From: Nannocystis pusilla
GTDB lineage: Bacteria; Myxococcota_A; Polyangia; Nannocystales; Nannocystaceae
NCBI RefSeq assembly: GCF_026626665.1
Contig: NZ_JAPNKE010000002.1
Coordinates: forward strand, 1,229,204 to 1,293,203
Direction of reading: 5' to 3'
DNA length: 64,000 bases
This document shows, piece by piece, positions 3,550 to 35,796 of the stretch (its first letter is position 1; every line of letters begins with the position of its first letter). Both the position numbers and the translations under genes were made by a program. The notes beneath the pieces are model-generated. The model did no database searches. It worked only from the letters and a program-made list of their open reading frames with translations, and was not told where the DNA came from.

Positions 3550-3705
3550 TGCGCTCGCGGAGGGACGAAGGGCTCGCGGGCGGCGCGAACACGACGTCGC
3601 ATTCGCGGAGGCACGCAGGTCTCGCGGGCGGCGCGTACACGGGGCGCGCTCGCGGAGGCACGCGGGCGAGGGCGGGGCGAACACGGGTCGCGCTCGCGGG
3701 TCCAC
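3550..3705. repeat. Degenerate tandem repeat, ~40 bp x3 (CTCGCGGGCGGCGCGWACACG...TCGCGGAGGCACGC)
   Basis: Direct repetition visible in the DNA upstream of guaD. The same periodicity shows in the junk ORF 3174..3770 (VPPRMRRRVRAAREPFVPPRAQ). Confidence 0.6.
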
Positions 3706-5090: not shown

Positions 5091-6512
5091 ATGCTCCGCG
5101 AGACATATCCCCTGTTCCTCGGCGGCCGCGCGGTGCAGGCCAACTTCGACCTGCCCGTGCTGGACAAGTTCTCCGGCGAGGAGGCGGCCCGCGTGGCCCA
5201 GGCCGACCCGGGCACGCTCGACGCGGCGATCGCCGCCGCCGCCGGGACGACGCGGGCGATGGCCGCGCTGCCGCCCTACGCCCGCCAGGCCGCGCTCGAG
5301 CACTGCGCGCGCCAATTCGAGGCGCGCGCGGCCGAGCTGGCGATGGTGCTGTGCATCGAGGCGGGCAAGCCGATCCGCGACGCCCGCGGCGAGGTGGGCC
5401 GCCTGATCGAGACGTTCAAGGCCGCGGCGGCCGAGGTGACGCGACCGGCCGGCGAGGTGCTGGCGATGGCGAGCAGCCCGCGCCTGCGAGGCTACCGCGG
5501 CCAGTGGAAGCGGGTGCCGATCGGCGCGTGCTCGCTGATCTCGCCGTTCAACTTCCCGCTCAACCTGGCGGCGCACAAGATCGCGCCGGCGATCGCCGCG
5601 GGCTGCCCGTTCGTGCTCAAGCCCGCCAGCGCGACGCCGATCTCGGCGCTGCTGATCGGCGAGGTGCTGGCCGAGGCGGACCTGCCCGAAGGGTCATGGT
5701 CGATCGTGCCGTGCCCGCGCGCCGGCGCCGACGCGCTGGCCAGCGACGACCGCCTCAAGCTGCTCAGCTTCACCGGCTCGCCGGCGGTCGGCTGGGCGAT
5801 GAAGGCCCGCGCCGGCAAGAAGAAGGTGGTGCTCGAGCTCGGCGGCAACGCGGCCTGCGTGGTCGACGAGACCGCCGACCTCGAGAAGGTGGTGCCGCGG
5901 CTCGTCACCGGGGCGTTCTACCAGTCGGGCCAGAGCTGCATCAGCGTGCAGCGGATCATCGCCCACACGTCGATCTACGCCGAGCTGCGCGAGCGCCTGG
6001 TCGCGGCCGTCCGCGAGCTGCGCGTCGGCGACCCGCGCGACGAGGACACGTTCATCGGGCCGATCATCTCCGAGAAGGAGGCGAGCCGGATCGCCGCGTG
6101 GATCGACGGCGCGGTCAAGGCCGGCGCGCGCCTGTTGTGCGGCGGCCAGCGCGACGGGGTGATGGTGGCGCCGACGCTGCTCGAGAACGTGCCGCGCGAC
6201 CAGCCGATCGCCGCCGAGGAGGCGTTCGGGCCGGTGGCGCTGCTGTCGGAGTTCGCCAGCTTCGACGAGGCGCTGTGGCAGGTCAACGACAGCAAGTTCG
6301 GCCTGCAGGCGGGCGTGTTCACCCGCGACATCGACCGCATGCACCAGGCGTGGGACTCGCTCGAGGTCGGCGGGGTGATCATCAACGACGTGCCGTCGTT
6401 CCGCGCCGACCCGATGCCCTACGGGGGGGTCAAGGACTCCGGTCTCGGTCGCGAGGGGCTCCGCTTCGCCATCGAGGACATGTCGGAGATCCGGATGCTC
6501 GTGGTGCGGTGA
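5091..6512 (+). CDS. NAD(P)-dependent aldehyde dehydrogenase family protein
   Basis: MLRETYPLFLGG...FTGS...ELGGNA...GQSCISVQRII: ALDH catalytic Cys and Glu motifs. GAGG RBS before the ATG at 5091. Upstream residues of listed ORF 4623..6512 are read-through. Confidence 0.85.
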   Translation: MLRETYPLFLGGRAVQANFDLPVLDKFSGEEAARVAQADPGTLDAAIAAAAGTTRAMAALPPYARQAALEHCARQFEARAAELAMVLCIEAGKPIRDARGEVGRLIETFKAAAAEVTRPAGEVLAMASSPRLRGYRGQWKRVPIGACSLISPFNFPLNLAAHKIAPAIAAGCPFVLKPASATPISALLIGEVLAEADLPEGSWSIVPCPRAGADALASDDRLKLLSFTGSPAVGWAMKARAGKKKVVLELGGNAACVVDETADLEKVVPRLVTGAFYQSGQSCISVQRIIAHTSIYAELRERLVAAVRELRVGDPRDEDTFIGPIISEKEASRIAAWIDGAVKAGARLLCGGQRDGVMVAPTLLENVPRDQPIAAEEAFGPVALLSEFASFDEALWQVNDSKFGLQAGVFTRDIDRMHQAWDSLEVGGVIINDVPSFRADPMPYGGVKDSGLGREGLRFAIEDMSEIRMLVVR

Positions 6513-6516
6513 TGTG

Positions 6517-6556
6517 TCTTTTCGGGCATGTCGTCAGGGACATGTCCGAAAAGACC
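6517..6556. repeat. Perfect inverted repeat (17-bp arms GTCTTTTCGGGCATGTC / GACATGTCCGAAAAGAC, 6-nt loop) between convergent genes; motif family; possible bidirectional terminator or protein-binding palindrome
   Basis: Read directly. Starts 5 nt after the aldehyde dehydrogenase stop and ends 6 nt before the SDR stop. No U-tract. Confidence 0.6.
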
Positions 6557-6561
6557 TCTCG

Positions 6562-7365
6562 TCACACGACCGGGACGGTGCCGCCGTCGATGGTGGTCTC
6601 GCTGCCGTGGATCGAGGCGGCGCGGTCGGAGACGAGGAAGGCGACGAGCTCGGCGACCTCCTCCGGCCGGCCGGGGCGGCCGATCGGGATGCCGCCGAGC
6701 GAGGTCATGAGGCCGTTGCGCGCGGTGGCCTCGTCGGTGCCGGCCTCGGCGGCCAGGCGGACGACGAGGGCGTGGGCGGCGGCGGTCTCGACGTAGCCGG
6801 GGGCGATGCTGTTGACGCGCACGCCCTGGGGGCCGAACTCCTTGGCGAGGCCCTTGCTGTAGGTGCTGAGGGCGGCCTTGGCCGCGGCGTAGGCGAGGGT
6901 GGACTCGTAGAGCGGCATGCGCCGCTGGATCGACGAGACGTGGAGGATGACGCCGTAGCGCTGGGCGACCATGCCGGGCAGGAAGGCGCGGTCGAAGCGG
7001 ACGGCGGCGAGCAGGTTGAGGTCGAGCTCGTGGCGCCACTGGTCGTCGTCGAGGGCGAGGGCGCCGCCGCCGGGAGCGGTCGAACCACCGGCGTTGTCGA
7101 CGAGGATGTCGAGGCCGCCGAAGGCGTCGGTCACGGCGCGGACGACCCGCTCGACGCCCTCGCGGGTGGAGATGTCGGCCCGCACGAACAGGGCCGGCTC
7201 CTGTCCTTCGGGCAAGGCGGAGCGCGCGGTGGTGGCGACCGACGCGCCGCCGGCGGCGAGCCGACGCACCATCGCGGCGCCCATGCCCTGCGTGCCGCCG
7301 GTGACGAGGACGCGCTTGCCGGTGAATTCGCGGGGGTCGTAGAAGAGGGGCGTTGCCTGGCTCAT
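6562..7365 (-). CDS. SDR family oxidoreductase
   Basis: VLVTGGTQGMG (Rossmann TGxxxGxG), NAG, and a Y-x3-K triad region (YAAAKAAL). Confidence 0.85.
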   Translation of the reverse strand: MSQATPLFYDPREFTGKRVLVTGGTQGMGAAMVRRLAAGGASVATTARSALPEGQEPALFVRADISTREGVERVVRAVTDAFGGLDILVDNAGGSTAPGGGALALDDDQWRHELDLNLLAAVRFDRAFLPGMVAQRYGVILHVSSIQRRMPLYESTLAYAAAKAALSTYSKGLAKEFGPQGVRVNSIAPGYVETAAAHALVVRLAAEAGTDEATARNGLMTSLGGIPIGRPGRPEEVAELVAFLVSDRAASIHGSETTIDGGTVPVV

Positions 7366-7759: not shown

Positions 7760-8110
7760 GGCGGATGTCTCTTCGGACAGATGATCGAGGATGTCCGAAG
7801 AGGCAGGTGCTCGCGGCCGTGAGGCGCGGGCGTTTCGGACAGGCGCGCGCTTCGGTCGCGGAGTGACTGTCGCTTCGGACAGGTGCTCGCGGCCGTGAAG
7901 AGCGGGCGTTTCGGACAGGCGCGCGCTTCGGTCGCGGAGTGGCTGTCGCTTGGGACAGGTGCTCGCGGCCGTGAGGCGCGGGTTTTGGACAGGCGCGCTT
8001 CGGTCGCGGAGTGGCTGCTTCGGACGGGCGGGGCGCGGCGCCAGCTGTCGCTTGGGACAGGCGCTCGGCGCTGCAGGGCGGGGCTGTCTCTTCGGACAGG
8101 TGAACCGGCG
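7760..8110. repeat. Tandem repeat array, ~76-bp unit x ~3.5-4, each unit with two motif cores (TGTCGCTTCGGACAGGTG and CGTTTCGGACAGGCG)
   Basis: Units starting ~7803, 7877, 7953 and 8051 align with few substitutions. Terminal copy is ...CTGTCTCTTCGGACAGGTGAACCGGCG. Confidence 0.8.
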
Positions 8111-8929: not shown

Positions 8930-9250
8930 GGAGCCGGCGGCTGTCCTTGAGGGCAGGTCAGGAGCGCCCGGCGACGCGCGGCGGTCGATCGGAGGCTGTC
9001 CTGGGGGACAGGTGGCGTCGCGGCGGTAGCGAGCATCGGTGGAGTGCCGTCGCGGCGGCGGTCTCGAGCATCGGTGGAGTGGCGTCGCGGCGGCGGTAGC
9101 GAGAGCGGTTGCCCGGTAGCGACCGCGGCGAGGTCGGGGCGGCGGACTCGAGCATCGGTGGAGTGGCATCGGGGCGGTGGTGGCGAGAGCGGTTGCCCGG
9201 TCGCGACTGCGGCGAGGCCGGGTGCACCGACCTCGCCGCTCGAGCTGTCC
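8930..9250. repeat. Complex direct-repeat region: CGAGCATCGGTGGAGTGSCGTCGCGGCGGCGG x3 and GCGAGAGCGGTTGCCCGGTMGCGACYGCGGCGAGG x2, flanked by CTGTCC-N5-GGACAGG palindromes
   Basis: Read directly. The periodicity reappears as RSLPGNRSRYRRRDATPPMLE repeats in junk ORF 8958..9227. Confidence 0.6.
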
Positions 9251-9276
9251 TTGCGGACAGGTTTTTTAGATGTCTC

Positions 9277-10672: not shown

Positions 10673-12445
10673 TCACTCCGGGGTGCCCACGCGCAGGAAG
10701 GCGGGGCTGGCGACGAGCTCGGCGAGGAGCTCCTTCATGCGGTACTCGTTGTCCTCGAACGCCTGGTCGAGGTCCTTCAGCGCCCCGGCCTCGCCGGGCA
10801 CCTCGAGGTGGCCGGTGGCGTGGCGGAACAGGTTGCGCACGAGGCAGCGCGTGACCGCGGGGCTCTGGCGCAGGAGGCTGCCGAGCTCGCGGGCGCCGTC
10901 GAACTCGCCGAGGCCGTCGAGGTTGCTGACGGTGTCGAGGGTGACGCCGTTCTCGACGAGGCGGAACACGCCGATGCCGTCGAAGTTCTCGAGGCCTAAG
11001 CCGATGTCGTCCATGAGCTTGTGGCAGCCCGAGCACGAGGGGTTGGTCTGGTGCTCGGCCAGGCGGTCGCGCATGGTCGGGTAGTCCTCGCCGACCGGCA
11101 GCTCGGTGACGACGTCGGGCGGCGGCGCCGGGATGCCCTGACACATCAAGACCTCGCGCACGAACTTGCCGCGCAAAGTCGGCGAGGTGCTGCTGATGTG
11201 CGCGTAGGCGGCGAGGAAGCCGCCCTGACCGAGCAGGCCGCCGCGCTTGCTGTCGACCGGGAGGTCGAACTGCTGCCAGGTGTCGCCGAGCACCGCAGGG
11301 TCGGGGATGAGGCCGTAGAGCGCGGCGAGCGGGCCGTTGGCGAAGGTGTAGGGGGCGTCGAGGAAGTCGCGGAAGTCGGCCTCGCGCGTGAAGGCGATGT
11401 CGTCGATGAGCTTGAGCGCCTCCTCGCGCATGGCGGTCCCGAGGGCGGGCGACCAGGCGGGGAAGGTGGCGGGATCCTTGGGCAGCGCCTCGAGGGTGCG
11501 CAGGCGCAGGACCTCGGCGAAGAAGCCGCCGAGAGCGCCGCGCGCGGCTGGCGTTTCGAGCATGGTCCAAGCGACATCCCGGACGGCGTCGGCGGTGGCG
11601 AGGCCGTCGCCCTCGCCGAGGTCGATGAGCTCGCGCGTCGGGGTGGTGTCGAGCAAGAAGAAGCTGAGGCGCGTGGCGAGCTCGACGCCGGTCAGCACCC
11701 GCTGCGCCGGATCGTCGGGATCGGGCTCGCCGACCTCGACCTGGTAGAGGAAGTAGGGCGACTGCAGCAGGCCGGCGACGGCGTATTCGCGGCCCGACTC
11801 CCAGCTGCCGAACGCCAGCGCGGCGTCGCGGCCGACCGCGCCGTAGCGATCGATCTCGGCCTGGGTGAGGCTGCGGCGCCAGGCGACGCGGCCGAAGTTG
11901 GCGACGAACTCCTTGTGACAGGCCTCGTCGTCGGCGCCGGTCGGCACGCAGGTGTGGTAGCTGGCGAGGATGGCGTCGTCGGCGGCGGCCGCGACCTTGC
12001 GCGCAGACTTCTCGTAGGTGTCGACGGCCTGATCGCCCAGCGCGAGCTGGGCGGCGCCGATCGACTCGAAGCCGTTGAGCGCGCTGTCCGGCGGGGTCTC
12101 GACCTCGGCGGCCGCGGCGTCGCCGAGCAAGTAGGCGACGGAGCTCCGGTACTGACGCGCGAGAAGGAGGCGCAGCCGCGCGGGGGCCGGAGCGAACTCT
12201 TCCCCACCGCCGTCAGTCGGGTCGGTGCCTTCGGTCGGATCGCCGTCGGTGCCGGCGGAGTTCGGCCCGCCGGTCTCGGTGGGATCCTCGCCGCCGGTCA
12301 GGGTGGGGTTGCTGGCGCTCTGGTCCTGGCCGGCGCCGTGGTAGCAACCGCCGGCGAGGCTCGCCGTGAGAGTGAGAAGGACCGCGAGCTCTCCCGGACC
12401 TTGCGGCCTGGATGGTGCGCGGGCGAAACGAGGCTGCCTGGGCAT
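10673..12445 (-). CDS. DUF1592/DUF1585/DUF1588-type lipoprotein, the usual partner of DUF1552 proteins
   Basis: Start MPRQPRFA with lipobox LTASLAGGC and AAGGAG RBS. Body contains a CxxCH-like motif (CSGCHKLMDD) and the conserved DUF158x/159x blocks. Immediately upstream of the DUF1552 gene. Confidence 0.8.
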   Translation of the reverse strand: MPRQPRFARAPSRPQGPGELAVLLTLTASLAGGCYHGAGQDQSASNPTLTGGEDPTETGGPNSAGTDGDPTEGTDPTDGGGEEFAPAPARLRLLLARQYRSSVAYLLGDAAAAEVETPPDSALNGFESIGAAQLALGDQAVDTYEKSARKVAAAADDAILASYHTCVPTGADDEACHKEFVANFGRVAWRRSLTQAEIDRYGAVGRDAALAFGSWESGREYAVAGLLQSPYFLYQVEVGEPDPDDPAQRVLTGVELATRLSFFLLDTTPTRELIDLGEGDGLATADAVRDVAWTMLETPAARGALGGFFAEVLRLRTLEALPKDPATFPAWSPALGTAMREEALKLIDDIAFTREADFRDFLDAPYTFANGPLAALYGLIPDPAVLGDTWQQFDLPVDSKRGGLLGQGGFLAAYAHISSTSPTLRGKFVREVLMCQGIPAPPPDVVTELPVGEDYPTMRDRLAEHQTNPSCSGCHKLMDDIGLGLENFDGIGVFRLVENGVTLDTVSNLDGLGEFDGARELGSLLRQSPAVTRCLVRNLFRHATGHLEVPGEAGALKDLDQAFEDNEYRMKELLAELVASPAFLRVGTPE

Positions 12446-15283: not shown

Positions 15284-15384
15284 CGGCGGCGGTTCGAGAG
15301 TGGCGGATCCGTGAATTGCTGGGGCGGAGGTTCGAGGGCGGTTCGTGAACCGCTGGGGCGGAGGTTCGAGAGTGGCGGTTCGCG

Positions 15385-15640
15385 ATTGCCGACTGCGCCT
15401 CGCGGGGGGTCCGGGGAAGGGCCGGCCGCGAGTTAACCGGCCGGATGCGCGCTCGTTCCTCGCACCCATCCTGCCTCTAATTCGCGGCCGGCCCTTCCCC
15501 GGACCCCTGGCACGGCTGCAGCCGTGAGAGGCCGCCTCGCCGTCGTCGGCTTCGCTGGGGGCTGTCGTCGGGAGCAGAGCCGGGGCGCCTGTTCGGCGGC
15601 CAGGGCTGGCCGCCGAACAGACGCTTTCTCGCGTCATTGA
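15385..15640. repeat. Structured repeat element copy 1 (~150-bp conserved core 15385..15528 with a long imperfect hairpin, a CACGGCTGCAGCCGTG palindrome and a GGCCAGGGCTGGCC palindrome)
   Basis: ~93% identical to 45644..45787 in the same orientation. Outer stem GGGGTCCGGGGAAGGGCCGGCCGCGA / TCGCGGCCGGCCCTTCCCCGGACCCC. Confidence 0.7.
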
Positions 15641-16059
15641 CGGCGTGGCATCTCCGCGCGGCGAGTGCTGGCGATCGCTGGCAGCGTGGCCGCCTTTGCC
15701 TGTCCCTGTCCCGCCTGCGCGTCTGCATGAGGCGAGTCCGCGGGCGCGAGGTGTCGAGCGTGCCGGGACTTGCTGCCTGTGCGCCCCCGTCGGGCCTCCG
15801 CGTAATCACGGGCGAAGCTGCGCGCGTCGATGAACGGTGAGCAACACGTTTACGAGGCTGTGCCCCGCTGCGGGCGCGCCTCGTCGAGTTTCGGACGATG
15901 AAGCGCGGCCGTCCGGCCCGGCAATGGTGCAACGAGCGGCCGCATGTCGCCGATCCATCGCCGCGCCACACGACGCCCCGGTCGGCGGGGGAGGCCATGC
16001 CTCCAGCGCGCTCGCTCGCGCGCGGAGGGATGTGCGCGGAGGCGGTGAGCCTGGCGACC

Positions 16060-16140
16060 AGGACATGTCCCTTGGAGAATGTCGGCCGGGCCATGTTGTA
16101 TAGGACATGGCCTTTAGGGCATGTCCTTCAGGGCATGGCG
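16060..16140. repeat. Motif cluster (GGACATGTCC / GGGCATGTCC / GGACATGGCC x5)
   Basis: Read directly, downstream of the vWA lipoprotein gene. Confidence 0.6.
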
Positions 16141-17714
16141 TGGAGGGTCGGCTGTAGCATGCCGGCGAGGCAGCCGAGGGCGGCGGTGTAGTCGCTGTCG
16201 CAGACGGACTCGATGCAGCAGCGCATGGCGCGTTCGTTGACGGCGGTGTCGGGGTCGTCGGGGATGTCGAGGGCCTGGCAGACTTCCTGGATCCGCCCGG
16301 GCGGGACGGCCTGGCCGGCAGGGCCGACGCAGCCGGGGCCGATGCCGAACTCGAATTGTTTGTCGGCCGGGGTGTCGGTGTCGCCGGGCAAGATGTCGTC
16401 GGGCTGCCAGTCGCGGTAGACGAGGGCGTCGACGCCGCCGGCGAGGGGCTCGAACGGAGGGGCGTGGTTATGCTCGGTGACCTGGGGGACGCCGCCGAGG
16501 ACGAGCATGACGACGTCCTTGCCGTGGTGCTGGCGCAGGTCGGCGAGGGCCTCGGTGTAGCGGGAGACGGGCTGGAGGACGTGCTTGTCCTCGGACATGC
16601 ACCACTCGTACTCGCCGTCGTCGTCGTCGTCGGCGCAGGTCATGCCGGCGTTCCAGCACACGGCGCTGGTGGGCTCGGTCCGCTGGCCGCTGCTCGGGTG
16701 CGACGGCCAGTACTTGCTGAACTCGGGGTCGTCGTGCAGCTTGGGGTCGAAGTAGGCGAAGTTGAGGGTGGAGCAGTCGGTCTCGTCGGTGACGATGACG
16801 ACCGCGAGCGGGGCGCCAGGGCGCAAGAAGGGCCGCTCGCCGATGTTCCACCGCGCTTCGAGGTCGAGCGCGCGCCGCATGGCCTCGAGCGGCGACTCCA
16901 TGCCGCAGCCGTCGATGCCCTGCGGGCCGATGCAGGCGAGGGCGTCGGCCGCGGGGTCGCCCATGCCGTCAGGGTCGATGACGTTGTGGCTGGTGGGGCT
17001 GAAACGAATGAACGGATCGGTGGGGACGGAGGGAGCAGCCTCGGCGCAGCGCGAGGTGCAGATCTCGGACATCACGGGCGGATCGGCGCCGAGGCCGGTA
17101 AATCGCGCCAGGCGGTCGGTGCACGGGGTGTCGATCGGCTGGCCGTCGGCGGCGTCGTAGTCGGGCTTCTCGAACGGCGTGCACAGCGGGTGCGGCACGT
17201 CGGTGGTGGTGACCATGATGTGCACGTCGGCGCCGACGAGCTGACCGTTGGCGTCGCTGAGGCCGCGCAGCAGCTTGACGAAGGCAGGGAAGCTGTCGGC
17301 GAGCTGGCTCTGCTCCTCGCCCATGGTGCCGGAGTTGTCGATGACGAACAGGACGTCGAGCTGCTCGCAGGCGCCGCCGTCGATGCAACCGGTCTCCGGC
17401 GGCGGATCTTCGCCGGTGGTGACGGGCTCGCCGGTGGTGCCGTCAGGCGGGTCGCCGGTGGTGTCCGGCCCGGCGGTGGTGGTCGGCAGCGGGTCGAGGG
17501 TGGTGTCGTCGACGTGCTGCGAGGTGACGACGAGGGTGTCGACGCTGATGGTGTCGGCGCCGTCGGTGTCGCCGGGGAGCTCGCCCAGAGGGCTAGGATC
17601 GAGGATGCAGCCGAGATGTACGAAAGGACAGGTGAGAACCACGGCGAGGCACGCCCTCGCCGCGGAGGCGATCGGGCTGCGGTGCGTTCGAGAAGTGGGC
17701 ACGGGTCGTCTCAC
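16128..17714 (-). CDS. von Willebrand factor A (vWA) domain lipoprotein
   Basis: Signal and lipobox ...VHLGC. T/P-rich linker. MIDAS motif VLFVIDNSGTM. Many Cys in the C-terminal half. Confidence 0.75.
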   Translation of the reverse strand: MRRPVPTSRTHRSPIASAARACLAVVLTCPFVHLGCILDPSPLGELPGDTDGADTISVDTLVVTSQHVDDTTLDPLPTTTAGPDTTGDPPDGTTGEPVTTGEDPPPETGCIDGGACEQLDVLFVIDNSGTMGEEQSQLADSFPAFVKLLRGLSDANGQLVGADVHIMVTTTDVPHPLCTPFEKPDYDAADGQPIDTPCTDRLARFTGLGADPPVMSEICTSRCAEAAPSVPTDPFIRFSPTSHNVIDPDGMGDPAADALACIGPQGIDGCGMESPLEAMRRALDLEARWNIGERPFLRPGAPLAVVIVTDETDCSTLNFAYFDPKLHDDPEFSKYWPSHPSSGQRTEPTSAVCWNAGMTCADDDDDGEYEWCMSEDKHVLQPVSRYTEALADLRQHHGKDVVMLVLGGVPQVTEHNHAPPFEPLAGGVDALVYRDWQPDDILPGDTDTPADKQFEFGIGPGCVGPAGQAVPPGRIQEVCQALDIPDDPDTAVNERAMRCCIESVCDSDYTAALGCLAGMLQPTLHAMP

Positions 17715-18999: not shown

Positions 19000-20061
19000 T
19001 TATTTCTTTGGCCGGGCCGAGGTCGATCCGTCACGCCGCGCGCCGGGCCCGAGACGAATCTCGAGGCCGCCGCCGAAGCGCACGCCGACCGGCTGGGTGA
19101 TGAAGACGAGCTCGTCGCTGACGGTGAACTGGGCCCGCAGCGGAGCGATGACGAAGTCGGTGCGGACGCCGAGGCCGACCCGAGGATGCGGCGACCACAC
19201 GAGGCCGAGGCCGAGCAGGACGGCGAACCAGGGCGGGCGGGCCTGTCGGCGGTCGACGGTGATGCCGGCGCCCTCGGCGAGGAGCTGGCCGCCCTCGAGG
19301 CCGAGGCACACCGGGATCTCGAGCGAACCGGGGAGGAACCGGCCGCAACCGCGGACCCCCAGCGCCCAGCGAGCGACGACGCCGACCCGGGCGTCCTCGA
19401 AGGTCAGCGGGCGCGCCGGCATGTAGTGGCCCACGGCCTCGACGCGGAGGCGGTGGTAGAGGAAGCCGAAGGCGCCGCCGATGTCGCCGGCGATCGTCGG
19501 GGTGGCGCCGGCGTCGATCGCCCCGTCGACGCGCAGGAGGACGCTGAGCTTGTGGGCGCGCGCGGGTGGGGGCGCGGGCGGACGCGAGGGCGGAGCGGTG
19601 GGCGGCGCGGGCGGGGGATCGCGGACCGGCGAGGGCTCGGGATCGACGGGGGCAGGCTCGACGGGGTCAGGCGGCGGCGGGACGGGGGTCGGAGGCGCGG
19701 GCTCGGGTTCGGGCTCGGGTTCCGGGGCAGGAGGCGCGAGCTGGTTGGCGAACTCGAGCGGGTCGATGGCGATGGCGATGATCAGGGCCGCGGCGCCGTC
19801 GAGCGAGTCGCAGGCGTCGGCGCGCTCGACCCGGCGCTGGGTGAGGCGCTGGGTGTGGATGTCGAGCCGCAGCTCGTAGCGCCCGGCGACCCTGCGGACG
19901 ACGCCGCGCACGCGCACGCCCTCGAGGTCGGGTGGCCGGGTGAGGGCGGCCAGAGCTTCGAGGACGTCGTCGCGGGTCGGGCAGCCCGCGGGGGCGCGCC
20001 ACTCGATCGCAGGCGGTCCGGCCAGCGACAGGAGGAGCAGCGCGGAGGTCGGACCGAGCAT
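19000..20061 (-). CDS. Hypothetical secreted protein with Pro-rich linker
   Basis: Internal start MLGPTSALLLLSLAGPP (signal peptide) with GAGG RBS. PAPEPEPEPEPAPPTP linker. C-terminal Gly-rich domain. The listed ORF extends 89 aa further upstream as junk. Confidence 0.5.
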   Translation of the reverse strand: MLGPTSALLLLSLAGPPAIEWRAPAGCPTRDDVLEALAALTRPPDLEGVRVRGVVRRVAGRYELRLDIHTQRLTQRRVERADACDSLDGAAALIIAIAIDPLEFANQLAPPAPEPEPEPEPAPPTPVPPPPDPVEPAPVDPEPSPVRDPPPAPPTAPPSRPPAPPPARAHKLSVLLRVDGAIDAGATPTIAGDIGGAFGFLYHRLRVEAVGHYMPARPLTFEDARVGVVARWALGVRGCGRFLPGSLEIPVCLGLEGGQLLAEGAGITVDRRQARPPWFAVLLGLGLVWSPHPRVGLGVRTDFVIAPLRAQFTVSDELVFITQPVGVRFGGGLEIRLGPGARRDGSTSARPKK

Positions 20062-20360
20062 GGCCGCAGCAGCCTCGGATGGTAGACGCGAGCCCCGCCG
20101 GGACGCCAGGGGGCTGCGGCGGGGCGGCGCCGAGTTTGTCCGGCGTTCGGCGGCGGAGCGGTGAGCTGTCCTTCGGGACATGTGAACCGCGAGCGCGACG
20201 CGGCGCCCGGGGCGGAACCGCCCGGCGGTCGCGGGCGCGCCAGGACGCTCGGGGCGGTGTCCGCGGGGTGTCAGCGCGGGCGAGGCGGCGGCGTTGTGGG
20301 GCTGCACGCCGAGGCACGAGGCTGTCAAGCTGGCCCGTGCCCCGGCCCAAGGAGACGCGC

Positions 20361-22529: not shown

Positions 22530-22793
22530 CAACGCAGTGACACCGACGGCCGCGGCCCGACGCTTCGTCGCGGGGCCGCGGCCTGCGTCTGAAGCACGCC
22601 GCGCTGACGCTCCGCCGCGGGGCGACACGGCGGCCGTCGCTGCTTGCGGAGCGCGCTGCGACGCCGCGGGCGGGGCGCTCCGGCGCGGGTGCTGTCGGGC
22701 AGCCGAGGTCGTCGAGCCGGGCTGCCTGGCCTCGGGAGCATGTCCCCAAGAGCCTGCCCCTCGGAGCATGCTCCGAAGGACCTGCCCTGCGGG

Positions 22794-23549
22794 TCACATG
22801 CAGGGCGGCGAGGCCTCGATCGTGTGGCCGCAGTGGACCTGGGCCTCGGCCGGGCCGGTGGCGGCGATCGTGAGGTGGTAGAGGCGGCAGGCGAGGGTGT
22901 TGCCGGCGGCGTCCTCGGTGTTGTACGGCTCGGTGTCCATGAAGTTGGCGCAGGTGGCCATGCAGTCGCCGGGGCTCGGGTGCTCGGTCGGGCAGATCGA
23001 GGTGGCGATGGCGCAGAAGCCCTCGCAGCTCTGACCGCACGCGCCGGCGCCGCTGGGGCCGGCGTGGATGCAGTGCATGCCCGGATCGATCGAGGCCATG
23101 CCGGCGTGGTAGGCCCGGCAGGACAGCGAGTTGCCGGAGGTCTCGCCCGGCGAGCCCGGCGGGAGGCCGCCGCAGGCGCCGAGGCAGCTCTCGTTGCTCG
23201 GGTACTGGGCGTTGGTGCCGGTGCAGCTGCCCATCATCGCCGCGCAGTACATCTGGCAGCCGACGTCGGTGTCGCCGCCGGTGCTCGAGGTGCCGGTGGT
23301 CGGGTCGCCGGTGCTGGTGACCGGATCGACGTCGCTGGTGGTGGTCGAGGAGGTGGGCTCGCCGGAGGTCCAGTCGGTCGTGGCGGTGGTGGTCGTCGTG
23401 GTGGTCGTGACGTCGCCGCTGACCTGGGTCGCGGTCGTGATCATCGCGGTGGTGCTCGCGGCCGAGCCGGTGTCGTCACCGCCCGAGTCGTCGAAGCAGG
23501 CGGGGAGCAGGAGGGTACCGAGGAGGGGAAGGAAGGCGCGAGAGGTCAT
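22794..23549 (-). CDS. Cysteine-rich lipoprotein, paralog A
   Basis: MTSRAFLPLLGTLLLPAC lipobox, poly-Thr linker, ~130-aa C-terminal domain with ~16 Cys that aligns to the next gene. Ends ...SPPCM. Confidence 0.7.
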   Translation of the reverse strand: MTSRAFLPLLGTLLLPACFDDSGGDDTGSAASTTAMITTATQVSGDVTTTTTTTTATTDWTSGEPTSSTTTSDVDPVTSTGDPTTGTSSTGGDTDVGCQMYCAAMMGSCTGTNAQYPSNESCLGACGGLPPGSPGETSGNSLSCRAYHAGMASIDPGMHCIHAGPSGAGACGQSCEGFCAIATSICPTEHPSPGDCMATCANFMDTEPYNTEDAAGNTLACRLYHLTIAATGPAEAQVHCGHTIEASPPCM

Positions 23550-23600
23550 GCGTGGGCCTTGCGTGGCGGCGTGAACCGGCATGGTTGAAGGGACATGTCT

Positions 23601-25664: not shown

Positions 25665-25940
25665 GAAGAACGTCTTATGAAGAGACAGGTGAGGGGCCGG
25701 GGCGCTCGTCCGGGCTCGTGCGGGCGCCTGGACGAGCGCGAAGGAGGATGGCCCGAGGGACAGGTGATGAGCCGCTTCGGGCCCGGCGGAGGATGTCTCG
25801 AAGGACGGGTCATGAGCGGCGGCGAGCGTTCGTGCCGGTGCCTGGGCGAGCGGGGGAGAGGATCGCTCGAGGGACAGGTGAGGAGCCGCGCCGGGCGCTG
25901 CAGAGGATGTCCCGAAGGACAGGTGATTCGGCGACCGGGT
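25665..25940. repeat. Tandem ~100-bp repeat x ~2.5 built from motif cores (GAGGATGTCYCGAAGGACRGGTGA / CGAGGGACAGGTGAKGAG), between exbD and tonB
   Basis: Read directly. Repetition also visible in junk ORF 25335..26006. Confidence 0.6.
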
Positions 25941-27073: not shown

Positions 27074-27802
27074 TCATTCCTCGGCGGCCCAGGCGAACCG
27101 CGGCGGGACGGCGATCATGGCGAAGCGGACGGCGGCCAGGGCGTCGGCGGCGGGCGAGGCCGGATCTTCGGCGGCCAGGGCGGCGAGGTCGTGCGGGCCG
27201 GGGCCGAGCTCGGCGAGCTCGTCGAAGTCGACGCCGGCCCACCAGGCGGCGCCGTCGATCGTGACGTCGAGCGCGCCGCCGACGTCGAGGTCGAAGGGAC
27301 CGACCCGCAGGCCCTCGATGGTGCGGCTGCCGCGGAGCACGGGGGCGACGTCGAGGTCGGCGGTGAACTCGAAGGACATGTCCGCAGAGACAGCCGTGCC
27401 GGCGAACCGGGCCGCGCGCCCGCCCGGCGCGCCGTCCTGGGCGCCCGGCTTGGCCTGCGTCTTGAGCCAGGTGACGCCGTAGTCGAGCATGGCCGAGCGG
27501 ACCTGACCGGGCAGGACGTCGAGCTCGCCGAGCGCCTGAGGCCCGGGGTCGAGCAGGTCGACGGGGGCGACCGCGGCGAACTCGGCGGCCGCGGTGGCGC
27601 ACAGTTCGGAGGAGGCGGCCGCGGTGGCGCACAGGTAGAGCGGGCCGAGGCCGACTTCGGCGCGCGTGAGGGTCACGGTCCAGGCGCCCGCGGTCAGCTC
27701 GGCCGCGGCCCCGCGCGCCCGCAGCGGGGCCTGGAAGGCCGGCTCGCCGGTGGCGCCGCAGGCGGCGCAGAGCAGGAGGAGCATGGCTGGTCGGAGGGAC
27801 AT
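27074..27802 (-). CDS. Hypothetical lipoprotein
   Basis: MSLRPAMLLLLCAAC lipobox. 242 aa. Confidence 0.45.
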   Translation of the reverse strand: MSLRPAMLLLLCAACGATGEPAFQAPLRARGAAAELTAGAWTVTLTRAEVGLGPLYLCATAAASSELCATAAAEFAAVAPVDLLDPGPQALGELDVLPGQVRSAMLDYGVTWLKTQAKPGAQDGAPGGRAARFAGTAVSADMSFEFTADLDVAPVLRGSRTIEGLRVGPFDLDVGGALDVTIDGAAWWAGVDFDELAELGPGPHDLAALAAEDPASPAADALAAVRFAMIAVPPRFAWAAEE

Positions 27803-27814
27803 GCGCGAAAGGAC

Positions 27815-27880
27815 CGGTGACGAGGGACAGGTGCGAGAGGACAGGTCTGGAGGGACAGGCGGCTAGAAGTGCAGGGTGAG
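27815..27880. repeat. Motif cluster (GGGACATGCGCGAAAGGACCGGTGA, GGGACAGGTG, GGACAGGTC, GGGACAGGCGG)
   Basis: Read directly, between the lipoprotein start and the TBDR stop. Confidence 0.55.
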
Positions 27881-30524
27881 GGTGCCCATGACGCTGAGCG
27901 GGGGGCCGGCGGCGAAGTGGCGGGCGGGCAGGAGGGAGGATCGGGCGGGTGCCCCAGTCGGACACGAAGTTGTACTCGGTGGCGGCCCAGCGGCGGGCCA
28001 GCAGGTTGAAGGCCTCGACGCCGACCTCGACGACCGACCAGCGCACGGCGGCGCTGGCGTCGAGGAGGTGGACGGGGTCGGCGAACTGTCCGTAAGGCAA
28101 TGGCCGCGGGGACAGGTAGGAGTAGCCGAGGCCGACGCGCAGGCCGAGCGGGCGACCCTTGAGCTCCACGAGGTCCTTGTCGAGGCCGATGTCGGCGCGC
28201 ACGACGACCGGCGGGACGTAGGGCAGGAGCTGGCCGGGGACGTAGGGCGGGGAGGGGTTCTCGGCGGTGGCCGGCGGCGGGGCGCGCAGGACGGCGTGGA
28301 CGTAGGTGACGCTGCCGGCGGCGACCAGCCACGGGAGCGGGCGCGCGATCAGCTGGAGCGCGGCGCCGGCCCGCCGCGTCGGACCGACTTTCTCGAGCCG
28401 GCCCTCCTCGGGGTCGAAGGCGAGGTCCTGGGCGAGGAAGGTGGCGAAGCCGGCGGCGCTGAGCTGGAGGCGACCGCCGAGCGGGCTCATGCGCACGCCA
28501 CCCTCGGTGCTGTGGACCTTGGCGAACGGGGCCCGCTCGCCCTCGTCGAGCTGGCGCGCCTGCGGCGAGCGGTAGCCCTGGCCGTAGGCGGCGAACAGGC
28601 TGACCCAAGGGACAGGCGCGACCTCGAGGCTGACGCGCGGGCCGGCGGCCACGCCGGTGGCGGTGCGGCGGTGACCGACGAGGTGGCTCTCGACCTGGTA
28701 GGGGGCGATGAAGTTGCCGAGGCGGTCGTCGATGTCGTAGTGGAGGACGTCGGCCCGACCGCCGCCGCGCAGGCGCACGCGCTTGCCGAGGCGGAGGTCG
28801 AGGTCGCCGTAGAGGCCGACGTCGCTGGCGAGGACGGTGGCGTCGACGCGCCGGTCCCAGGTCTCGTTCTGCGGCGCTTGCAGCAGGTTCTGCGCCTGCT
28901 GGATGTTGTGGATCCGGGCGGCGGCGCCGACCTCGAGGGCGGCGTGGAACCACGGGGCGGGGCGCCATCCGGCTGTCCGATGGGACAGGCGCATGCCGCC
29001 GCCGAAGTCGCGGTTCTGCTGCTCGATGAGGTCGCCGCGGCCGACCCACTGCGGCATGACGACGCCGCGCTGGGTGTAGCCGGTGAAGTTCTCGCGGCTG
29101 TGGAGGTCGACGAGGGCGGTCCACACGGCCATGCGGGTGACCGCGCCGCCCTCGCCGCGGCGCTCGAGCTCGAGCGAGAGGTGGCCGCGCGCGGCCGAGG
29201 CGGACTGGCTGTTGGCCGAGGGGTCGCCGTAGCTGTCGTAGAAGCCGACGACGCCGGCGGCGACGTCGTCGCGGCGCAGGACGCCGGCGAGGCCGGCCCG
29301 CGCGGCGTAGGCGGCGACGTGGACCTTGCCGCGCCAGCCGCCCGCGGCCGAGAAGGCGAACTGGCCCATGGCCATGCCCGAGAGGCCGCCGCGGTTCATG
29401 CCGAAGCCGCGGGTGCGACGGACGGCGGCGGCGGCGAAGGTCTCGTCCTCCTGGCCCTTGGGGGCCCACAGGACGAGCTGGCGGAAGGTGGCGAAGGAGC
29501 CGCCGGTGCTGCGCAGCTGGATGCCGCGGCGCGGGACGGCGAGGTCGAAGTCGATGCTGCCGGCGACGGCGAAGTCGCCCTGCCGCGGGTCGTAGACGCC
29601 CTCGGTGACGCGGATCGATCGTACGGTCTCGGGGACGATCCAGTTGAGGTCGGCGTAGCCCTGGCCGTGCAGGTGCGAGACCTGGTTGAGCGGCAAGGCG
29701 CCGGCGGTGATCTCGATGTCCTGGCCGTGCGCGGCGTTGAAGCCGCGCAGGGTGATCTCGTGCGCCACGGCCTCGCCCTCGGCCCGCGCGACGTAGACGC
29801 CGGGGGCGCTGCTCAGCATGTCGGCGGCGCTCTGCCGCGGCGGGGCGGCGAGGACGTCGCGCTCGACGACGAAGTCGCTGGCGGCCCGCGGCGGCGGCCG
29901 CCGGCTGCGCGCGGCGACGTCGAGCACCGGCTCGGGCTGGCTGGCCGAAGGGGCAGGTTGGGACGGGCTGGCCGAAGGGGCAGGTTGGGACGGACCCGGC
30001 TGGCTGGCCGAAGGGACAGGTTGGGGCGGACCCGGCTGGCTGGCCGGAGGGACAGGTTGGGAGGGGGCCGGCTGGCTGGCCGGAGGGGCAGGTCGGGAGG
30101 GACCCGGTTGGCTGGCCGAAGGGGCAGGTTGCCCGGGCGGGGCCGAAGGGGCAGGTTCACCGGCGGGCGCCTCGGCGGGCTGGGCCGGCGGGGCGAAGTT
30201 GAAGGGCACGCGGATCTTGACGGCCACCGCGACGTCGTCCCGGCGCGCCGGGTCGAACCGCCACTGCTTGACCGCGGCGACCGCGGCGTCGTCGAAGGCC
30301 GCGCCGCCGCTCTTCAGCACCTCGACGGCGCCGACCCGCCCGTCGGCCTCGACGGTGACCGCCAGCTTGACCGCGACGACGTCGCTGCGCGCCTCGGCGA
30401 GCGGATAGACGGCGTCGACCCGGGTCCGCGGGCTCGGCGGGACGACCGCGGGCGCGGCCCAGCCCGGCGAGGCCCACAGGCACGCCGCGAGGCAGGTGCA
30501 GAGCGTGGCGCGAGCGCGTGGCAC
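27866..30524 (-). CDS. TonB-dependent receptor with N-terminal TonB-C-like domain and Pro-rich repeat linker; apparent 1-nt frameshift near 27935
   Basis: Signal peptide, TonB-like block (VKLAVTVEADGRVGAVEVLKSGG...AVKQWRFDP), SQPxPSxPAPPA repeats, plug and barrel. The true C-terminus ...PLSVMGTLTLHF* (terminal aromatic) is in a shifted frame. The listed ORF instead runs on to 27066 in the wrong frame. Confidence 0.8.
29930..30170. repeat. ~30-bp tandem DNA repeat encoding the Pro-rich linker of the TBDR (coding)
   Basis: GGCTGGCTGGCCGAAGGGGCAGGTTGGGACGG repeated ~7 times; translates on the minus strand to ...SQPGPSQPAPSASQP... Confidence 0.6.
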
Positions 30525-30749: not shown

Positions 30750-32195
30750 TCAACCCGGCGGGCGGTCGCCGCCGGCGATGTCGGGCGCGCCGTCCATCAG
30801 CGGCCGCGGATCGCCGTCGACGTCGGTCCGCGGGTCGCCCTGCTTCCAGCGGGCGACGCCGGCGAGCGGGAGGCCGTCGCCGAACACGTGCAGGTCGCCG
30901 CCGTTCCAGTCCATGAAGATCTGCGGGACGGCCTGCGGCGGGATGACGCTGGTGTTGGTGTCGGCGTTCTCCAGCTCCGCGGCGCTGACGAGCGAGTCGG
31001 AGAGCTGGGCCGCGCTGGTGGCACAGGAGAAGGTGTCGACGAGGCCGTGGCTGAGGAGCGCCGAGTTGCGCGCGTCGAGCCCGGCGGTGCCGTCGAGGCA
31101 GGCGAACAGGCCCGACTCGTGCTGGGTGACGTCGCCGAGCGTGGTGTAGAGGAGGTTCGCAGTGCTGGCGGCGCCGATCTCGAGCGCGGCGCCCATGTTG
31201 AAGTGGGCGACGAGGCTGTTCTCCAGCCGCAAGGTGGCGCCCTCGGCGATGTGGATCGAGTAGAGGTTCTGCGCGAGCTGGTTGCGGCGGACCACGGTGG
31301 TGCACTCGGCGGCCGAGATGGCGCGACCGCCGTAGCCGACGATCCGGACGTCGTCGAGCCACAGCTGGGCGGCGGCGCGGCAACGGACCGCGGCGGCGCC
31401 CTGACCGTCTTCGATGCGGATCCGCGCGACGTAGAGCTCGCTGTCGATGGCGAGGTCCTGCATCTCGAGGCCGAGGAGGACGGCGGGCTCGACGTCGACG
31501 GTGAAGGTGGTGAGCTCGCTGCCGAGGACGGCGATCTTGCGCCCGCCCTGGTCGAGGTGGATGCCGGTCGCGTAGGTGCCGGGGAGCAGGTGGACGACGA
31601 GGTGCTCCGCGTCCTGGTGCTGGGACATGGCCTGGGCGATCGAGCAGCACGGCTGGTCCTCGGCGCAGGACTGCGCGCCGCAGACGAGCGCGGGGTCGAT
31701 GAAGGCGTGGCTGGTGCTGGCCTTGGGGAAGCAGACGCCGTCGTCGAGCTCGCAGGCGGTCTCCGGGCAGTCGTCGTGCTCGCGGCAGGCGCGGCAGACG
31801 TGGTCGACGGGGTCGCACACGCGGCCGTCGCAGGTGGCGCTGTCGATGCACTCGACGCACTGGCCCTCGTGACACTGCTGGCCGGGCCGGCACTCGGTGG
31901 CGCTGTCGCAGGGGCACACGTCGAGGTCGCAGGGCTCGCCGGTGGTGTCGGTGCCGGTCGAGGTGTCGCCGGTGAGGGTGACGGTGCCCTCCTCGCCGCT
32001 GGTGGGCCCGGTGGGGCCCAGGCTGGTGGCCGGGCCCTCGCCGCTGCTCGTGCTCCCGGGCCCGACCGTGGCGGTGCTCGTGGTGGTCGGGCCGTCGCTG
32101 CCGCCGGTGTCGGTGGTGTCGCTGCCCGCCGGGTTGAAGCAGGCGGCGAGGAGGAGGGATGACGCGAGGGACAGGGGGGATGTCTTCACGGTCAT
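30750..32195 (-). CDS. Secreted lipoprotein with Cys-rich module and probable parallel beta-helix region
   Basis: LLLAAC lipobox, T/S/G linker, Cys-rich block (CDLDVCPCDSATEC...CVEC...CRAC), then NxxG/right-handed beta-helix-like repeats. Confidence 0.55.
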   Translation of the reverse strand: MTVKTSPLSLASSLLLAACFNPAGSDTTDTGGSDGPTTTSTATVGPGSTSSGEGPATSLGPTGPTSGEEGTVTLTGDTSTGTDTTGEPCDLDVCPCDSATECRPGQQCHEGQCVECIDSATCDGRVCDPVDHVCRACREHDDCPETACELDDGVCFPKASTSHAFIDPALVCGAQSCAEDQPCCSIAQAMSQHQDAEHLVVHLLPGTYATGIHLDQGGRKIAVLGSELTTFTVDVEPAVLLGLEMQDLAIDSELYVARIRIEDGQGAAAVRCRAAAQLWLDDVRIVGYGGRAISAAECTTVVRRNQLAQNLYSIHIAEGATLRLENSLVAHFNMGAALEIGAASTANLLYTTLGDVTQHESGLFACLDGTAGLDARNSALLSHGLVDTFSCATSAAQLSDSLVSAAELENADTNTSVIPPQAVPQIFMDWNGGDLHVFGDGLPLAGVARWKQGDPRTDVDGDPRPLMDGAPDIAGGDRPPG

Positions 32196-32393
32196 GCTCT
32201 TTCGGTCATGGTGGTTGGGTCATGAAACGAAGGACAGGTGAGCGGCGGCGCCGACCAGGCCCGGCGAAGCGGCGCCGGTCGGCCCGCAGCGGCGCAGCGA
32301 GCCGACGAGCGGCGGGCTCGACCCGAGGAGGACGCGGGCGAGGGCGAGCGAGCGGGCATGACGGCGCCTGGTCGTCAGGCCGCGGGCAGGGCT

Positions 32394-34094: not shown

Positions 34095-34911
34095 GCCTGG
34101 TCTGGCTTACCTACACCAGCCGTCGCCGATCTGCACGCTAGAACGAAGTCCGTTCTGGAGCGAGGCGGTGTGCGGGCGGCGGTGCGCCGGGCGGGCGGAT
34201 CTGCGCTGAAACGGCGTCTTTTGCCATGTTGGGGGCGAAACGTCGAACGGCACGGGTGTGCTCGCGGCGATCGATCGCCGGCGGTGCAGGTGTCCGGGAT
34301 CCTCCCGGCTGCTGGCCGTGATGTGGGTCCCCGGCGCTGTTCGCTGCCCGTCGGCTGCGGTTCTCGTGCAGCGACCGCTGCGCCGGGAGGCGTCGTCGCG
34401 TGCGTGCGCCGACCTCGGGGCGCGGGGCCTCAGGCTCGTCGCACGAGGCTGGCGGACGCGACGGGAGATGACTGGGCGAAGGTCGACGAGGGCCGTGAAA
34501 GCCTCGACCGCGAGGGGGCGAGCCGTCGAACGCGAAGGCGTCGCCGTCACCGGGACGAGGGGCGGCGAGCGGCGCTGCAGCGAGGTGGCGGTCGGCGCCC
34601 TGGACCCCCGCAGCGGCCCTCGCAGCGGCTGCCAGAGGCCCGGCGGCGCGCCGGCGGCGCGGATCAGCGCGACGCTCGACGGGCGCAGGTGTTGTACACT
34701 CGCGCCGGTTTTTCCCCGGATGTCGCGCCGCCTCGCCCGCACCTGGTCGGTCGCCCTCGTCGAGGTCGACTGTGCCTGTGCGGGCCCGGACGGGCCGCCC
34801 CCTCGGCCCTGCCTGCAGCCCGGCCCTCGCCCCCCGAGGCGCCCTGCTGACCGCGCCGGCGCGACGCACCGGTCCGATCCGCCCTGCCCCTTCGGACATC
34901 CCCCCCACGAC

Positions 34912-35796
34912 ATGAAGCACGCCACGCGTCCCTCTCGGGTCCTGTCCCTCCTCACCGCGCTCGCGTTGCTGGCGCCCTCGCCGGCGCCGGCGGCCCCCGC
35001 CCAGGACACGAAGGCGCTGGCGGCGTTCGAGGCCGGGTTCAACGAGGGACAGGCCGAGTTCGACCGCGGCGAGAACCTCGCGGCGGCGCGCACGTGGATC
35101 GCGGCGGCGGCCAACCTCAAGGAGACGACGGCCCACCGGGACAACCGCGCCGCGGTCTACGAGTACGTGGTCGACGCGTTCACGCGCGGGCTGCAGGGCG
35201 AGACGCGGCCCGAGGCGCTGCGCGAGGCGGCCCAGGCGCTCGACGCCTACTGCGAGGGCTTCACCCGCGCGTACGGGACCGAGACGCCGATCAGCCCGAA
35301 GATCGTGGCGGCGCGCGACGACTTCAAGCAGCGGCTGGCCGAGGCCGAAGCGGCGGCCGCGGCCGAGAAGCCGCAGGTGCCGGACGCGGTCGAGGGCCCC
35401 GAGGAGCTGCCGCCGCCGCCGCCCGACGCCGTGCCGGCGGCGAAGCCGTGGAAGGGGCTGGCGATCGGCGGCGGGGTGATGATCGGGCTCGGCGTGGGCG
35501 CGGCGGTGGTGGCCGGGGTCGGCGGGGCCCGCGTCGCTTCGCTCGAGAAGCAGGTCGACGACCCGGCCAACATGTGCGTGCTCAGCATGCCGTCGCCGTC
35601 GTGCCAGGACCTGCTCGACCGCGGCAAGGCGGCCGAGTCGATGACCATCGCCGGCGCGGTGCTGGCCCCGCTGCTGGCGGGCGCCGGCGTGGCCCTGCTG
35701 GTCGTCGGGCTCAAGCGCCGCTCGCAGGCCAACACGGCGTTCGCGCCGGCGCTGGCGCCCGGGTTCGTCGGGCTCAGCCTGCGCGGCTCGTTCTGA
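34912..35796 (+). CDS. Hypothetical secreted/membrane protein
   Basis: MKHATRPSRVLSLLTALALLAPSPAPA signal, two C-terminal hydrophobic helices. A motif copy (CCCCTTCGGACATCCCCCCC) sits 10 nt before the ATG. Confidence 0.5.
   Translation: MKHATRPSRVLSLLTALALLAPSPAPAAPAQDTKALAAFEAGFNEGQAEFDRGENLAAARTWIAAAANLKETTAHRDNRAAVYEYVVDAFTRGLQGETRPEALREAAQALDAYCEGFTRAYGTETPISPKIVAARDDFKQRLAEAEAAAAAEKPQVPDAVEGPEELPPPPPDAVPAAKPWKGLAIGGGVMIGLGVGAAVVAGVGGARVASLEKQVDDPANMCVLSMPSPSCQDLLDRGKAAESMTIAGAVLAPLLAGAGVALLVVGLKRRSQANTAFAPALAPGFVGLSLRGSF

Follow-up and report, generated by a model that had tools for sequence, protein, structure and literature searches.

In the 64,000-nt stretch of Nannocystis DNA analysed here (the window; 72.6% GC), an aldehyde dehydrogenase (ALDH) gene and a short-chain dehydrogenase/reductase (SDR) gene converge on a gap of 49 nt that is largely taken up by a hairpin, and the locus raises the question of what this hairpin is and what it might do for either gene. 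The features of the gap and its surroundings are listed below, with strand given for the genes.

5091-6512, + strand: aldehyde dehydrogenase gene (Pfam Aldedh PF00171, E 3.7e-141; GC3 0.98), ending in TGA at 6510-6512
6507-6514: outer, weaker extension of the stem, which pairs with 6560-6568 and takes in the ALDH stop (RNA fold)
6516-6532: left arm of the hairpin, GTCTTTTCGGGCATGTC (sequence match and RNA fold)
6524-6533: core unit of the repeat family described below, GGGCATGTCG, with CATG at 6527-6530
6533-6538: loop GTCAGG (in other species GCAGAG, GCCTGG, GAAAGG or GTGAGG)
6538-6547: core unit GGACATGTCC, a perfect 10-bp palindrome with CATG at 6541-6544, 14 nt past the first CATG
6539-6555: right arm of the hairpin, GACATGTCCGAAAAGAC (sequence match and RNA fold)
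6560-6568: partner side of the outer stem extension, which takes in the complement of the SDR stop at 6562-6564 (RNA fold)
6562-7365, − strand: SDR gene, convergent with the ALDH gene (Pfam adh_short_C2, E 7e-45, and adh_short)

The element, GTCTTTTCGGGCATGTC-GTCAGG-GACATGTCCGAAAAGAC, spans 40 nt (6516-6555) and consists of two 17-bp arms and a 6-nt loop. Its sole non-Watson-Crick position is 6526 G against 6545 T; transcribed from the + strand it can pair as G·U, whereas the − strand transcript has A·C mismatched there. The initial annotation had already described a hairpin with 17-bp arms and a single mismatch, wedged between convergent ALDH and SDR genes; the sequence and the Pfam assignments of both genes (ALDH on the + strand, SDR on the − strand) bear this out. 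It had placed the hairpin at 6517-6556, starting 5 nt past a stop codon, whereas it lies one base further left and begins 3 nt past the ALDH TGA; the 6 nt given for its distance from the SDR stop and the lack of a U-tract were both correct, as no T-run follows the stem on either strand. Traced outward, the hairpin becomes an inverted repeat with 32-nt arms that are 75% complementary and include the outer extension, and in the extended stem the two TGA stop codons can pair with each other. The fold energy, proposed earlier as a check, came to −37.3 kcal/mol for RNA (z = −7.0, with none of 200 shuffles folding equally well) and to −18.5 kcal/mol for DNA (z = −5.0). By our own estimate from the base composition of the window, 64 kb should contain about 0.03 such hairpins by chance, counting those with a 17-bp arm, no more than one mismatch and a loop between 3 and 10 nt.

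We compared this gap with its counterparts in related genomes. The first ~17-19 kb of the window are collinear with Nannocystis sp. RBIL2, N. punicea and N. bainbridge, in which the ALDH is 97%, 94% and 93% identical, respectively (other relatives reach at most 68%), and a hairpin occupies the orthologous gap in five other sequences: these three, Nannocystis sp. SCPEA4 and a JGI metagenome contig. In RBIL2, N. punicea and N. bainbridge the centre, CATGTC-N6-GACATG, is the same and the arms are different, while the metagenome contig carries the arms of RBIL2 with a different loop. Nannocystis sp. SCPEA4, with an SDR 86% identical, has the hairpin in another register, CGCATGTGTCC-CATG-GGACATGTGCG, with CATG spacings of 9 and 7 nt. 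Among further sequence look-ups, that of the ALDH returned one Logan contig with an identical protein, an exact look-up of the SDR protein returned no match, and a degenerate pattern of the ALDH C-terminus retrieved three metagenome contigs, all from outside Nannocystis (59-69% GC) and none with the hairpin. A small extra GC palindrome of the GCCCGGGCGGGC type sits between hairpin and SDR stop in the RBIL2 sequence (11473-11500) and the N. punicea sequence (11472-11505), and is missing from the window and from N. bainbridge.

Across four aligned species the top of the hairpin, GCATGTC/GACATG, is invariant, and the outer stem changes fast yet stays paired. In this alignment 91% of cells are paired, both sides have changed in 4 of the 17 pairs, and one stem position is G-C, A-U or C-G depending on the species. 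The covariation score was 0.275 against 0.122 in shuffles, none of 500 of which scored as high, and pairing fell to 20-47% when the partner was slid. The spacers co-vary in every ortholog, reading TTTTC/GAAAA in the window and CGTTCGA/TCGAACG in RBIL2. Species pairs differ at 6-9 of 20 positions in the outer stem, 1-4 of 6 in the loop and 0-1 of 14 in the CATG core; at four-fold degenerate sites of the adjacent ALDH gene the difference is 6-18% among the four aligned species and 19-20% with SCPEA4 included. The outer stem has therefore turned over several times faster than four-fold sites with its pairing kept. Judged by these rates, constraint acts in two layers, the core being held in sequence and the outer stem only in its pairing. 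Because the outer stem outpaces silent sites, independent compensatory mutations are unlikely, which suggests that one arm has been copied from the other, for example by template switching at a DNA hairpin. The covariation shows that a hairpin forms in vivo, without telling whether selection sees the RNA or the DNA form; since templated DNA copying explains paired turnover more easily, it is not clean proof of selection on RNA.

The hairpin belongs to a repeat family, as the initial annotation had supposed. Its 17-mer occurs 11 times in the window at up to three mismatches against 0.04 expected, and the copy in the ALDH-SDR gap is indeed the cleanest; within one mismatch there are only three further matches, one of which is the right arm of the hairpin itself. 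The proposal that this copy marks the functional unit has to be revised, however, since the family is built from a module of 14 nt, in which the near-palindrome GGRCATGYCC is joined to 4 nt of spacer, GARA-like or the complement thereof, and four such modules in palindromic arrangement make up the ALDH-SDR hairpin. The same sequence can equally be read as abutting TGTCC-N4-GGACA mini-hairpins, at whose junctions CATG arises; core variants with CAGG or CCTG also occur. Distances between CATG sites in the window peak at 14, 28, 42 and 56 nt (21, 14, 8 and 3 pairs), and phased peaks are found in each of three related Nannocystis loci, whereas the 14-nt peak is absent from 1.24 Mb of 77 other bacteria, among which are four MAG contigs of other Myxococcota. 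Perfect matches to GGRCATGYCC number 11, compared with about 0.7 expected by our own estimate from base composition. Loose matches (at least 8 of 10 positions) do not exceed shuffles, at 194 versus 195, so only phased or structured copies are significant. We discarded the CATG pair at 42706/42720 as a coding false positive within a gamma-glutamyltranspeptidase gene.

From 16 hairpin-type copies we built a covariance model, R1, which gave 51 strand-hits in 160 kb of Nannocystis DNA, corresponding to about 30 sites, and many of these hits lay outside the training set; in 1.24 Mb of other bacteria its one match was a His/Met-rich coding repeat, a false positive. Arms differ between the training copies and are nevertheless complementary, with both sides changed in 12 of 17 pairs, although the 83% pairing of these copies is inflated because they were chosen for it. 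Mean column identity in their alignment is 67%, and only the CATG columns are invariant, an invariance that is built in by the choice of copies through CATG pairs. Further members of the family in the window are as follows.

7767-7804: copy with no CATG in its core (GGACAG/GGATGTCC type), where an HxlR gene and a gene of 127 aa converge (covariance model E 0.003)
16061-16148: 4-5 units that together fold as one long hairpin between convergent genes and extend over the stop codon of gene 16128-17642 (− strand)
22736-22795: array with a 28-nt period in a co-directional gap (covariance model match)
23580-23600: weak two-unit copy at a convergent junction
27794-27861: direct purine-rich array of the GGACAGG type, 14/28-nt period, non-folding
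35825-36092: largest cluster, with a tandem pair of 79-nt copies and additional long hairpins, 3' of gene 34318-35796 (+ strand)
41840-41986: array of eight units spaced exactly 14 nt apart, between convergent genes and extending over the stop codon of an RND pump gene (41861)
44574-44640: copies between a phosphorylase gene and a PfkB kinase gene (covariance model match)
47172-47200: weak two-unit copy at a convergent junction
52585-52624: family hairpin in the 3' tail of a LysR ORF (covariance model match)

Both 79-nt copies in the largest cluster contain GTTTTTTCGGGCATGTC, one mismatch from the left arm of the ALDH-SDR hairpin. Several palindromic arrays fold into long hairpins (35820-35900, z = −5.4; 41830-41985, z = −5.6; 16050-16150, z = −3.9). 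Hairpin formation is not universal in the family, because some direct arrays fold on neither strand (27785-27865 and 32165-32240, z about 0).

We next consider where these copies lie relative to genes. With our own crude, GC3-based gene map, copies were found at 6 of 7 convergent junctions, 5 of 26 co-directional gaps and none of 7 divergent gaps (Fisher P = 0.0007, convergent versus the rest), and independent gene calls in two further Nannocystis loci gave the same positional tendency. In SCPEA4, a copy or a related hairpin is present at 4 of 5 convergent junctions. In many cases a copy overlaps a stop codon or starts only a few nucleotides from one. In every Nannocystis genome compared, arrays occupy the same three junctions; one of these is shared even by a relative with an SDR of only 81% identity, and the 16061-16148 array is found at the same site, beside a gene of 690 residues, in six Nannocystis genomes; unit number varies between orthologous arrays. 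The convergent junction without a family copy, at 60365-60418, has an unrelated GC-rich hairpin (GCGGGC...GCCCGC).

How, then, might such an element act? We give about an even chance to the reading that the ALDH-SDR hairpin is a REP/REPIN-like palindromic repeat serving as the shared 3' stem-loop of both convergent mRNAs. While the structure, its membership of a family, a conservation marked by compensatory change and the preference for 3' ends of genes are all observed, we infer RNA rather than DNA as the probable working form, along with each functional step. Built from four palindromic modules, the element would fold, when either strand is transcribed, into a very stable 17-bp stem, which the flanks would lengthen to about 25 bp. 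Such a stem would block 3'-to-5' exonucleases and set the mature 3' ends once transcription has terminated further downstream; even with no U-tract, it may also slow RNA polymerase or bring it to a halt. A terminating ribosome would have to open the base of the stem, and because the stem lies so near both stops (3 and 6 nt) translation termination could be damped, as reported for the REPs of E. coli. Messenger RNAs are stabilised by REPs, which can also make ribosomes stall immediately upstream of stop codons (PMC12306157). The invariant CATG-centred core points to a sequence-specific factor, either an enzyme that spreads the element or a protein that binds it. As the U-tract is missing, an exonuclease barrier or 3'-end-defining stem is more likely than a self-sufficient terminator. 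Sequence analysis does not tell apart the roles suggested by the initial annotation (bidirectional terminator, RNase-protective stem-loop or dimeric protein site). Upkeep of the structure across species by compensatory changes supports actual formation of the stem-loop; the form of a classic bidirectional terminator was not found.

Several observations bear on this 3'-stem role from the other side. Some co-directional genes with a copy between them may be co-transcribed, and strong termination there would do harm; perfect stems of 17-25 bp could be targets of RNase III instead of being protective. Most arrays fold better on the + strand, and copies downstream of − strand genes are mixed in this respect. 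We set aside the excess of G·U over A·C on the + strand as evidence for an RNA role, since the window has an overall + strand G/T skew that makes it uninformative. The + strand GC skew is +0.03 to +0.19 in every 4-kb bin regardless of gene orientation, and G/T-rich k-mers are extremely strand-biased (GGTGGTG, 55:4), which points to the + strand as the leading one over the whole window. A KOPS- or Chi-like reading of GGACAGGTG (strand bias 11:1) was likewise dropped, as many other G-rich k-mers match its skew.

A true factor-independent bidirectional terminator, releasing RNA polymerase from either gene, strikes us as quite improbable at this site. It would account for a very stable, GC-containing stem at the sole place where both transcripts must end, and with 17 bp and a 6-nt loop the stem is well within the canonical range (at least 5 bp, GC-rich, loop of 3-8 nt); most convergent junctions carry family copies, and canonical terminators are not in excess in the window. 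However, no U-tract (~5 or more U within 8 nt) follows the stem on either strand (+ strand tail CTCTCGTCAC, − strand tail ACATCACCGC), nor is there the 5' A-tract and 3' U-tract of a bidirectional terminator; the T4 and A4 runs sit inside the arms, in the wrong orientation and in reversed order. A scan with consensus terminators did not list the site, and hairpin-plus-T-tract sites were not above chance in the 40 kb scanned (3 versus 4.6 expected, and 1 versus 3.7), as was the case for a canonical promoter scan. The mycobacterial RNA polymerase studied by Czyz et al. in 2014 reportedly needs a U-tract for intrinsic termination in vitro. In Streptomyces, 3' ends without U terminate less efficiently (PMC8780764). 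Canonical terminator-like sites are very few in the window; at one of them, 9245-9270, a family-type mini-hairpin does have a T-tract, CTGTCC-TTGC-GGACAG being followed by GTTTTTT.

The remaining explanations place the element at the level of DNA, or deny it a role. In one, which we regard as unlikely, a dimeric protein would bind each 10-bp palindrome GGRCATGYCC; with a 14-bp spacing, each dimer would be rotated by about 120 degrees relative to the one before, so that four helical turns hold three of them, and the arrays might be a nucleoid or topology element, for example a platform for gyrase or a nucleoid protein at places where positive supercoils accumulate through convergent transcription. 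Consistent with this are the invariance of the CATG core at the orthologous site while the remaining stem turns over, the exact 14-nt phase in direct and inverted arrays, including non-folding ones, the excess of perfect GGRCATGYCC and the enrichment of copies at convergent junctions. REP/BIMEs of E. coli are gyrase and IHF sites, which we count in its favour; recruitment of IHF is mentioned in PMC3479197. A protein reading single units, however, would need no complementarity between spacer 1 and spacer 3, which is kept in every ortholog; no candidate protein is known, and SCPEA4 retains the hairpin with its CATG spacings of 9 and 7 nt. Also improbable in our judgement is a selfish or neutral repeat without host function that persists where it is harmless, at gene 3' ends, having spread by slippage of 14/28-nt units or by an HUH-type enzyme, with palindromy arising through template switching in replication. 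An outer stem and loop that outpace four-fold sites while paired, unit numbers that vary between orthologous arrays, and tandem duplications of 28 and 79 nt all agree with such a repeat, and empty divergent (promoter) gaps are what purifying selection alone would yield; REPINs are regarded in the same way (PMC3337134). Yet the same three junctions are occupied in all Nannocystis compared, which argues that copies are retained for long and do not turn over, and hardly any convergent junction is left empty (6 of 7 have a copy). In a weak test, tblastn with an approximate E. coli RAYT query found no transposase in ~190 kb of DNA.

That the palindrome arose by chance, or simply from the likeness of the two gene ends, has next to no probability. 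The complementary TGA stops would add a few chance pairs at the base of the stem, but the 0.03 hairpins expected, a fold z of −7, the 11 relatives of the 17-mer against 0.04, the hairpins in six Nannocystis sequences and their covariation together refute it. More speculatively, the 14-nt-phased GGRCATGYCC arrays may be the cis-elements of an undescribed, lineage-specific Myxococcota system, in which a dedicated core-reading factor would turn nearly every convergent boundary into an insulator of transcription and topology and the arms would be kept complementary by templated copying and not by ordinary compensatory mutation; we hold this tentatively and consider it, on balance, doubtful. The factor could be a domesticated HUH-type enzyme, a nucleoid protein or an RNA-binding protein, and would read CATG in the hairpin or in the duplex. 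The shared 3' stem-loop remains the explanation that we prefer.

The window holds other repeats as well. A second dispersed repeat of ~250-270 bp occurs at 15370-15640 and 45630-45900, and again in the RBIL2 sequence at 20001-20270, with 87% identity between copies (~95% over the first 160 nt). It contains an inverted repeat with 39-nt arms and a hairpin with 19-bp arms followed by CTTTCTC, the arms of which differ between copies by compensatory changes (15585-15624 versus 45844-45883); it has no Rfam match, and could be an sRNA gene or a MITE. The window is also unusually rich in longer tandem repeats, several of which embed mini-hairpins of the family's TGTCC-N4-GGACA type.

3551-3699: 48 nt repeated 3.2 times, in a stretch of overlapping ORFs
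7804-8017: 76 nt repeated 2.9 times, intergenic by our gene calls
9049-9222: 84 nt repeated 2.1 times, intergenic by our gene calls
25716-25924: 114 nt repeated 1.8 times, intergenic by our gene calls
29966-30131: 36 nt repeated 4.6 times, inside a predicted gene

On the − strand at 32193-32235, three CATGACC units 14 nt apart create two mini-ORFs of five codons in which each TGA overlaps the next ATG (ATGA), and the third ATG starts a lipoprotein gene (30750-32195); this may be coincidence or a translational leader. The gamma-glutamyltranspeptidase gene (41994-43605, − strand) is split over two frames by a frameshift near 42440-42660, and is either a pseudogene or the product of a sequencing error.

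A hairpin between convergent genes is ordinary by itself; what appears to be undescribed is the family, with its 14-nt phase, invariant core and concerted arms. Nannocystis genomes are very large (12-13 Mb), 72% GC and rich in natural-product genes, and their transcription signals are essentially unmapped. Were a density of about one element per 5 kb to hold for the whole genome, the elements would number some two thousand, and the family would be the dominant recognisable 3'-boundary signal, classic terminators not being in excess. Should this be true, operons would be easier to annotate, and the engineering of high-GC myxobacteria would gain native parts for use as terminators or insulators. 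The modular 14-nt build and the concerted evolution of the arms also make the family a good case in which to separate selection on RNA structure from templated palindrome upkeep.

We compared the hairpin with several known systems. Bidirectional intrinsic terminators likewise offer one symmetric hairpin to two convergent genes, but have an upstream A-tract and a downstream U-tract, both of which the ALDH-SDR hairpin lacks. The DUS of Neisseria and the USS of Haemophilus are over-represented motifs of 10-12 nt that often stand as inverted pairs after genes and act as terminators. The Nannocystis motif resembles them as a short over-represented motif in inverted pairs 3' of genes, and differs in being itself palindromic and phased in arrays, with no evidence of sequence-specific uptake. 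Nor is the hairpin a MITE, for which target-site duplications and presence/absence polymorphism would be expected: flanking duplications are lacking, and it is at the same site in all six genomes. No Rfam model matched the window at gathering thresholds, and a local search by E-value gave only chance matches to eukaryotic miRNA hairpin models, far below threshold. GGRCATGYCC also matches the p53 half-site RRRCATGYYY letter for letter, a coincidence that is irrelevant to a bacterium, and literature hits for the motif were all to p53.

The stems found in other high-GC bacteria come closer. In Streptomyces avermitilis (>70% GC), 3' ends mapped by Term-seq follow GC-rich palindromes, ~25% with a U-rich tail, and stems at Rho-dependent ends are discussed as protection from decay (PMC8780764). 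The ALDH-SDR hairpin shares with them a GC-rich palindrome without a U tail just past the stop at >70% GC (PMC8780764), and the 'I-shaped' terminators proposed for Actinobacteria are likewise 3' stem-loops without a U-tract in high-GC bacteria. The stems of Streptomyces and Actinobacteria are unrelated in sequence, whereas those of Nannocystis have a common core motif and phase, which implies common origin or common recognition.

The closest likeness is to REP, BIME and REPIN elements. Like these, the family consists of short imperfect palindromes in many extragenic copies, placed at gene 3' ends and outside divergent promoter gaps, clustered in both orientations and persisting at orthologous sites. 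The ALDH-SDR hairpin has the size and fold of a REP (an imperfect palindrome of ~20-40 nt that forms a stem-loop), and the 160 kb of Nannocystis DNA contain many dispersed extragenic copies with a 3'-end bias. Roles reported for REPs include mRNA stabilisation, attenuation and ribosome stalling near stops, and as genomic GC rises REP numbers go up and Rho-independent terminators go down (PMC12306157). REPINs combine a short conserved core with variable sequence that keeps the hairpin, their spacers varying freely while the hairpin is always kept (PMC3337134); in Nannocystis, too, core units lie 14 nt apart between arms that are variable yet paired, in copies partly chosen for pairing. There are differences. 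The conserved part is ~10 nt as against ~20-35 nt of near-identity in REPs, so that no master sequence of that length unites the Nannocystis copies; a GTAG-type head is absent from the alignment of 16 copies, and the approximate E. coli RAYT sequence had no tblastn match in ~190 kb, which is a weak test. In the literature searched we found no description of Nannocystis repeats, no link between RAYT and Myxococcota, and no REP-like family described in this phylum. The strict 14-nt phase in direct and inverted order, in turn, is a feature of the Nannocystis family that REPs lack. We therefore describe it as a REP-like and apparently undescribed family with a modular, phased build.
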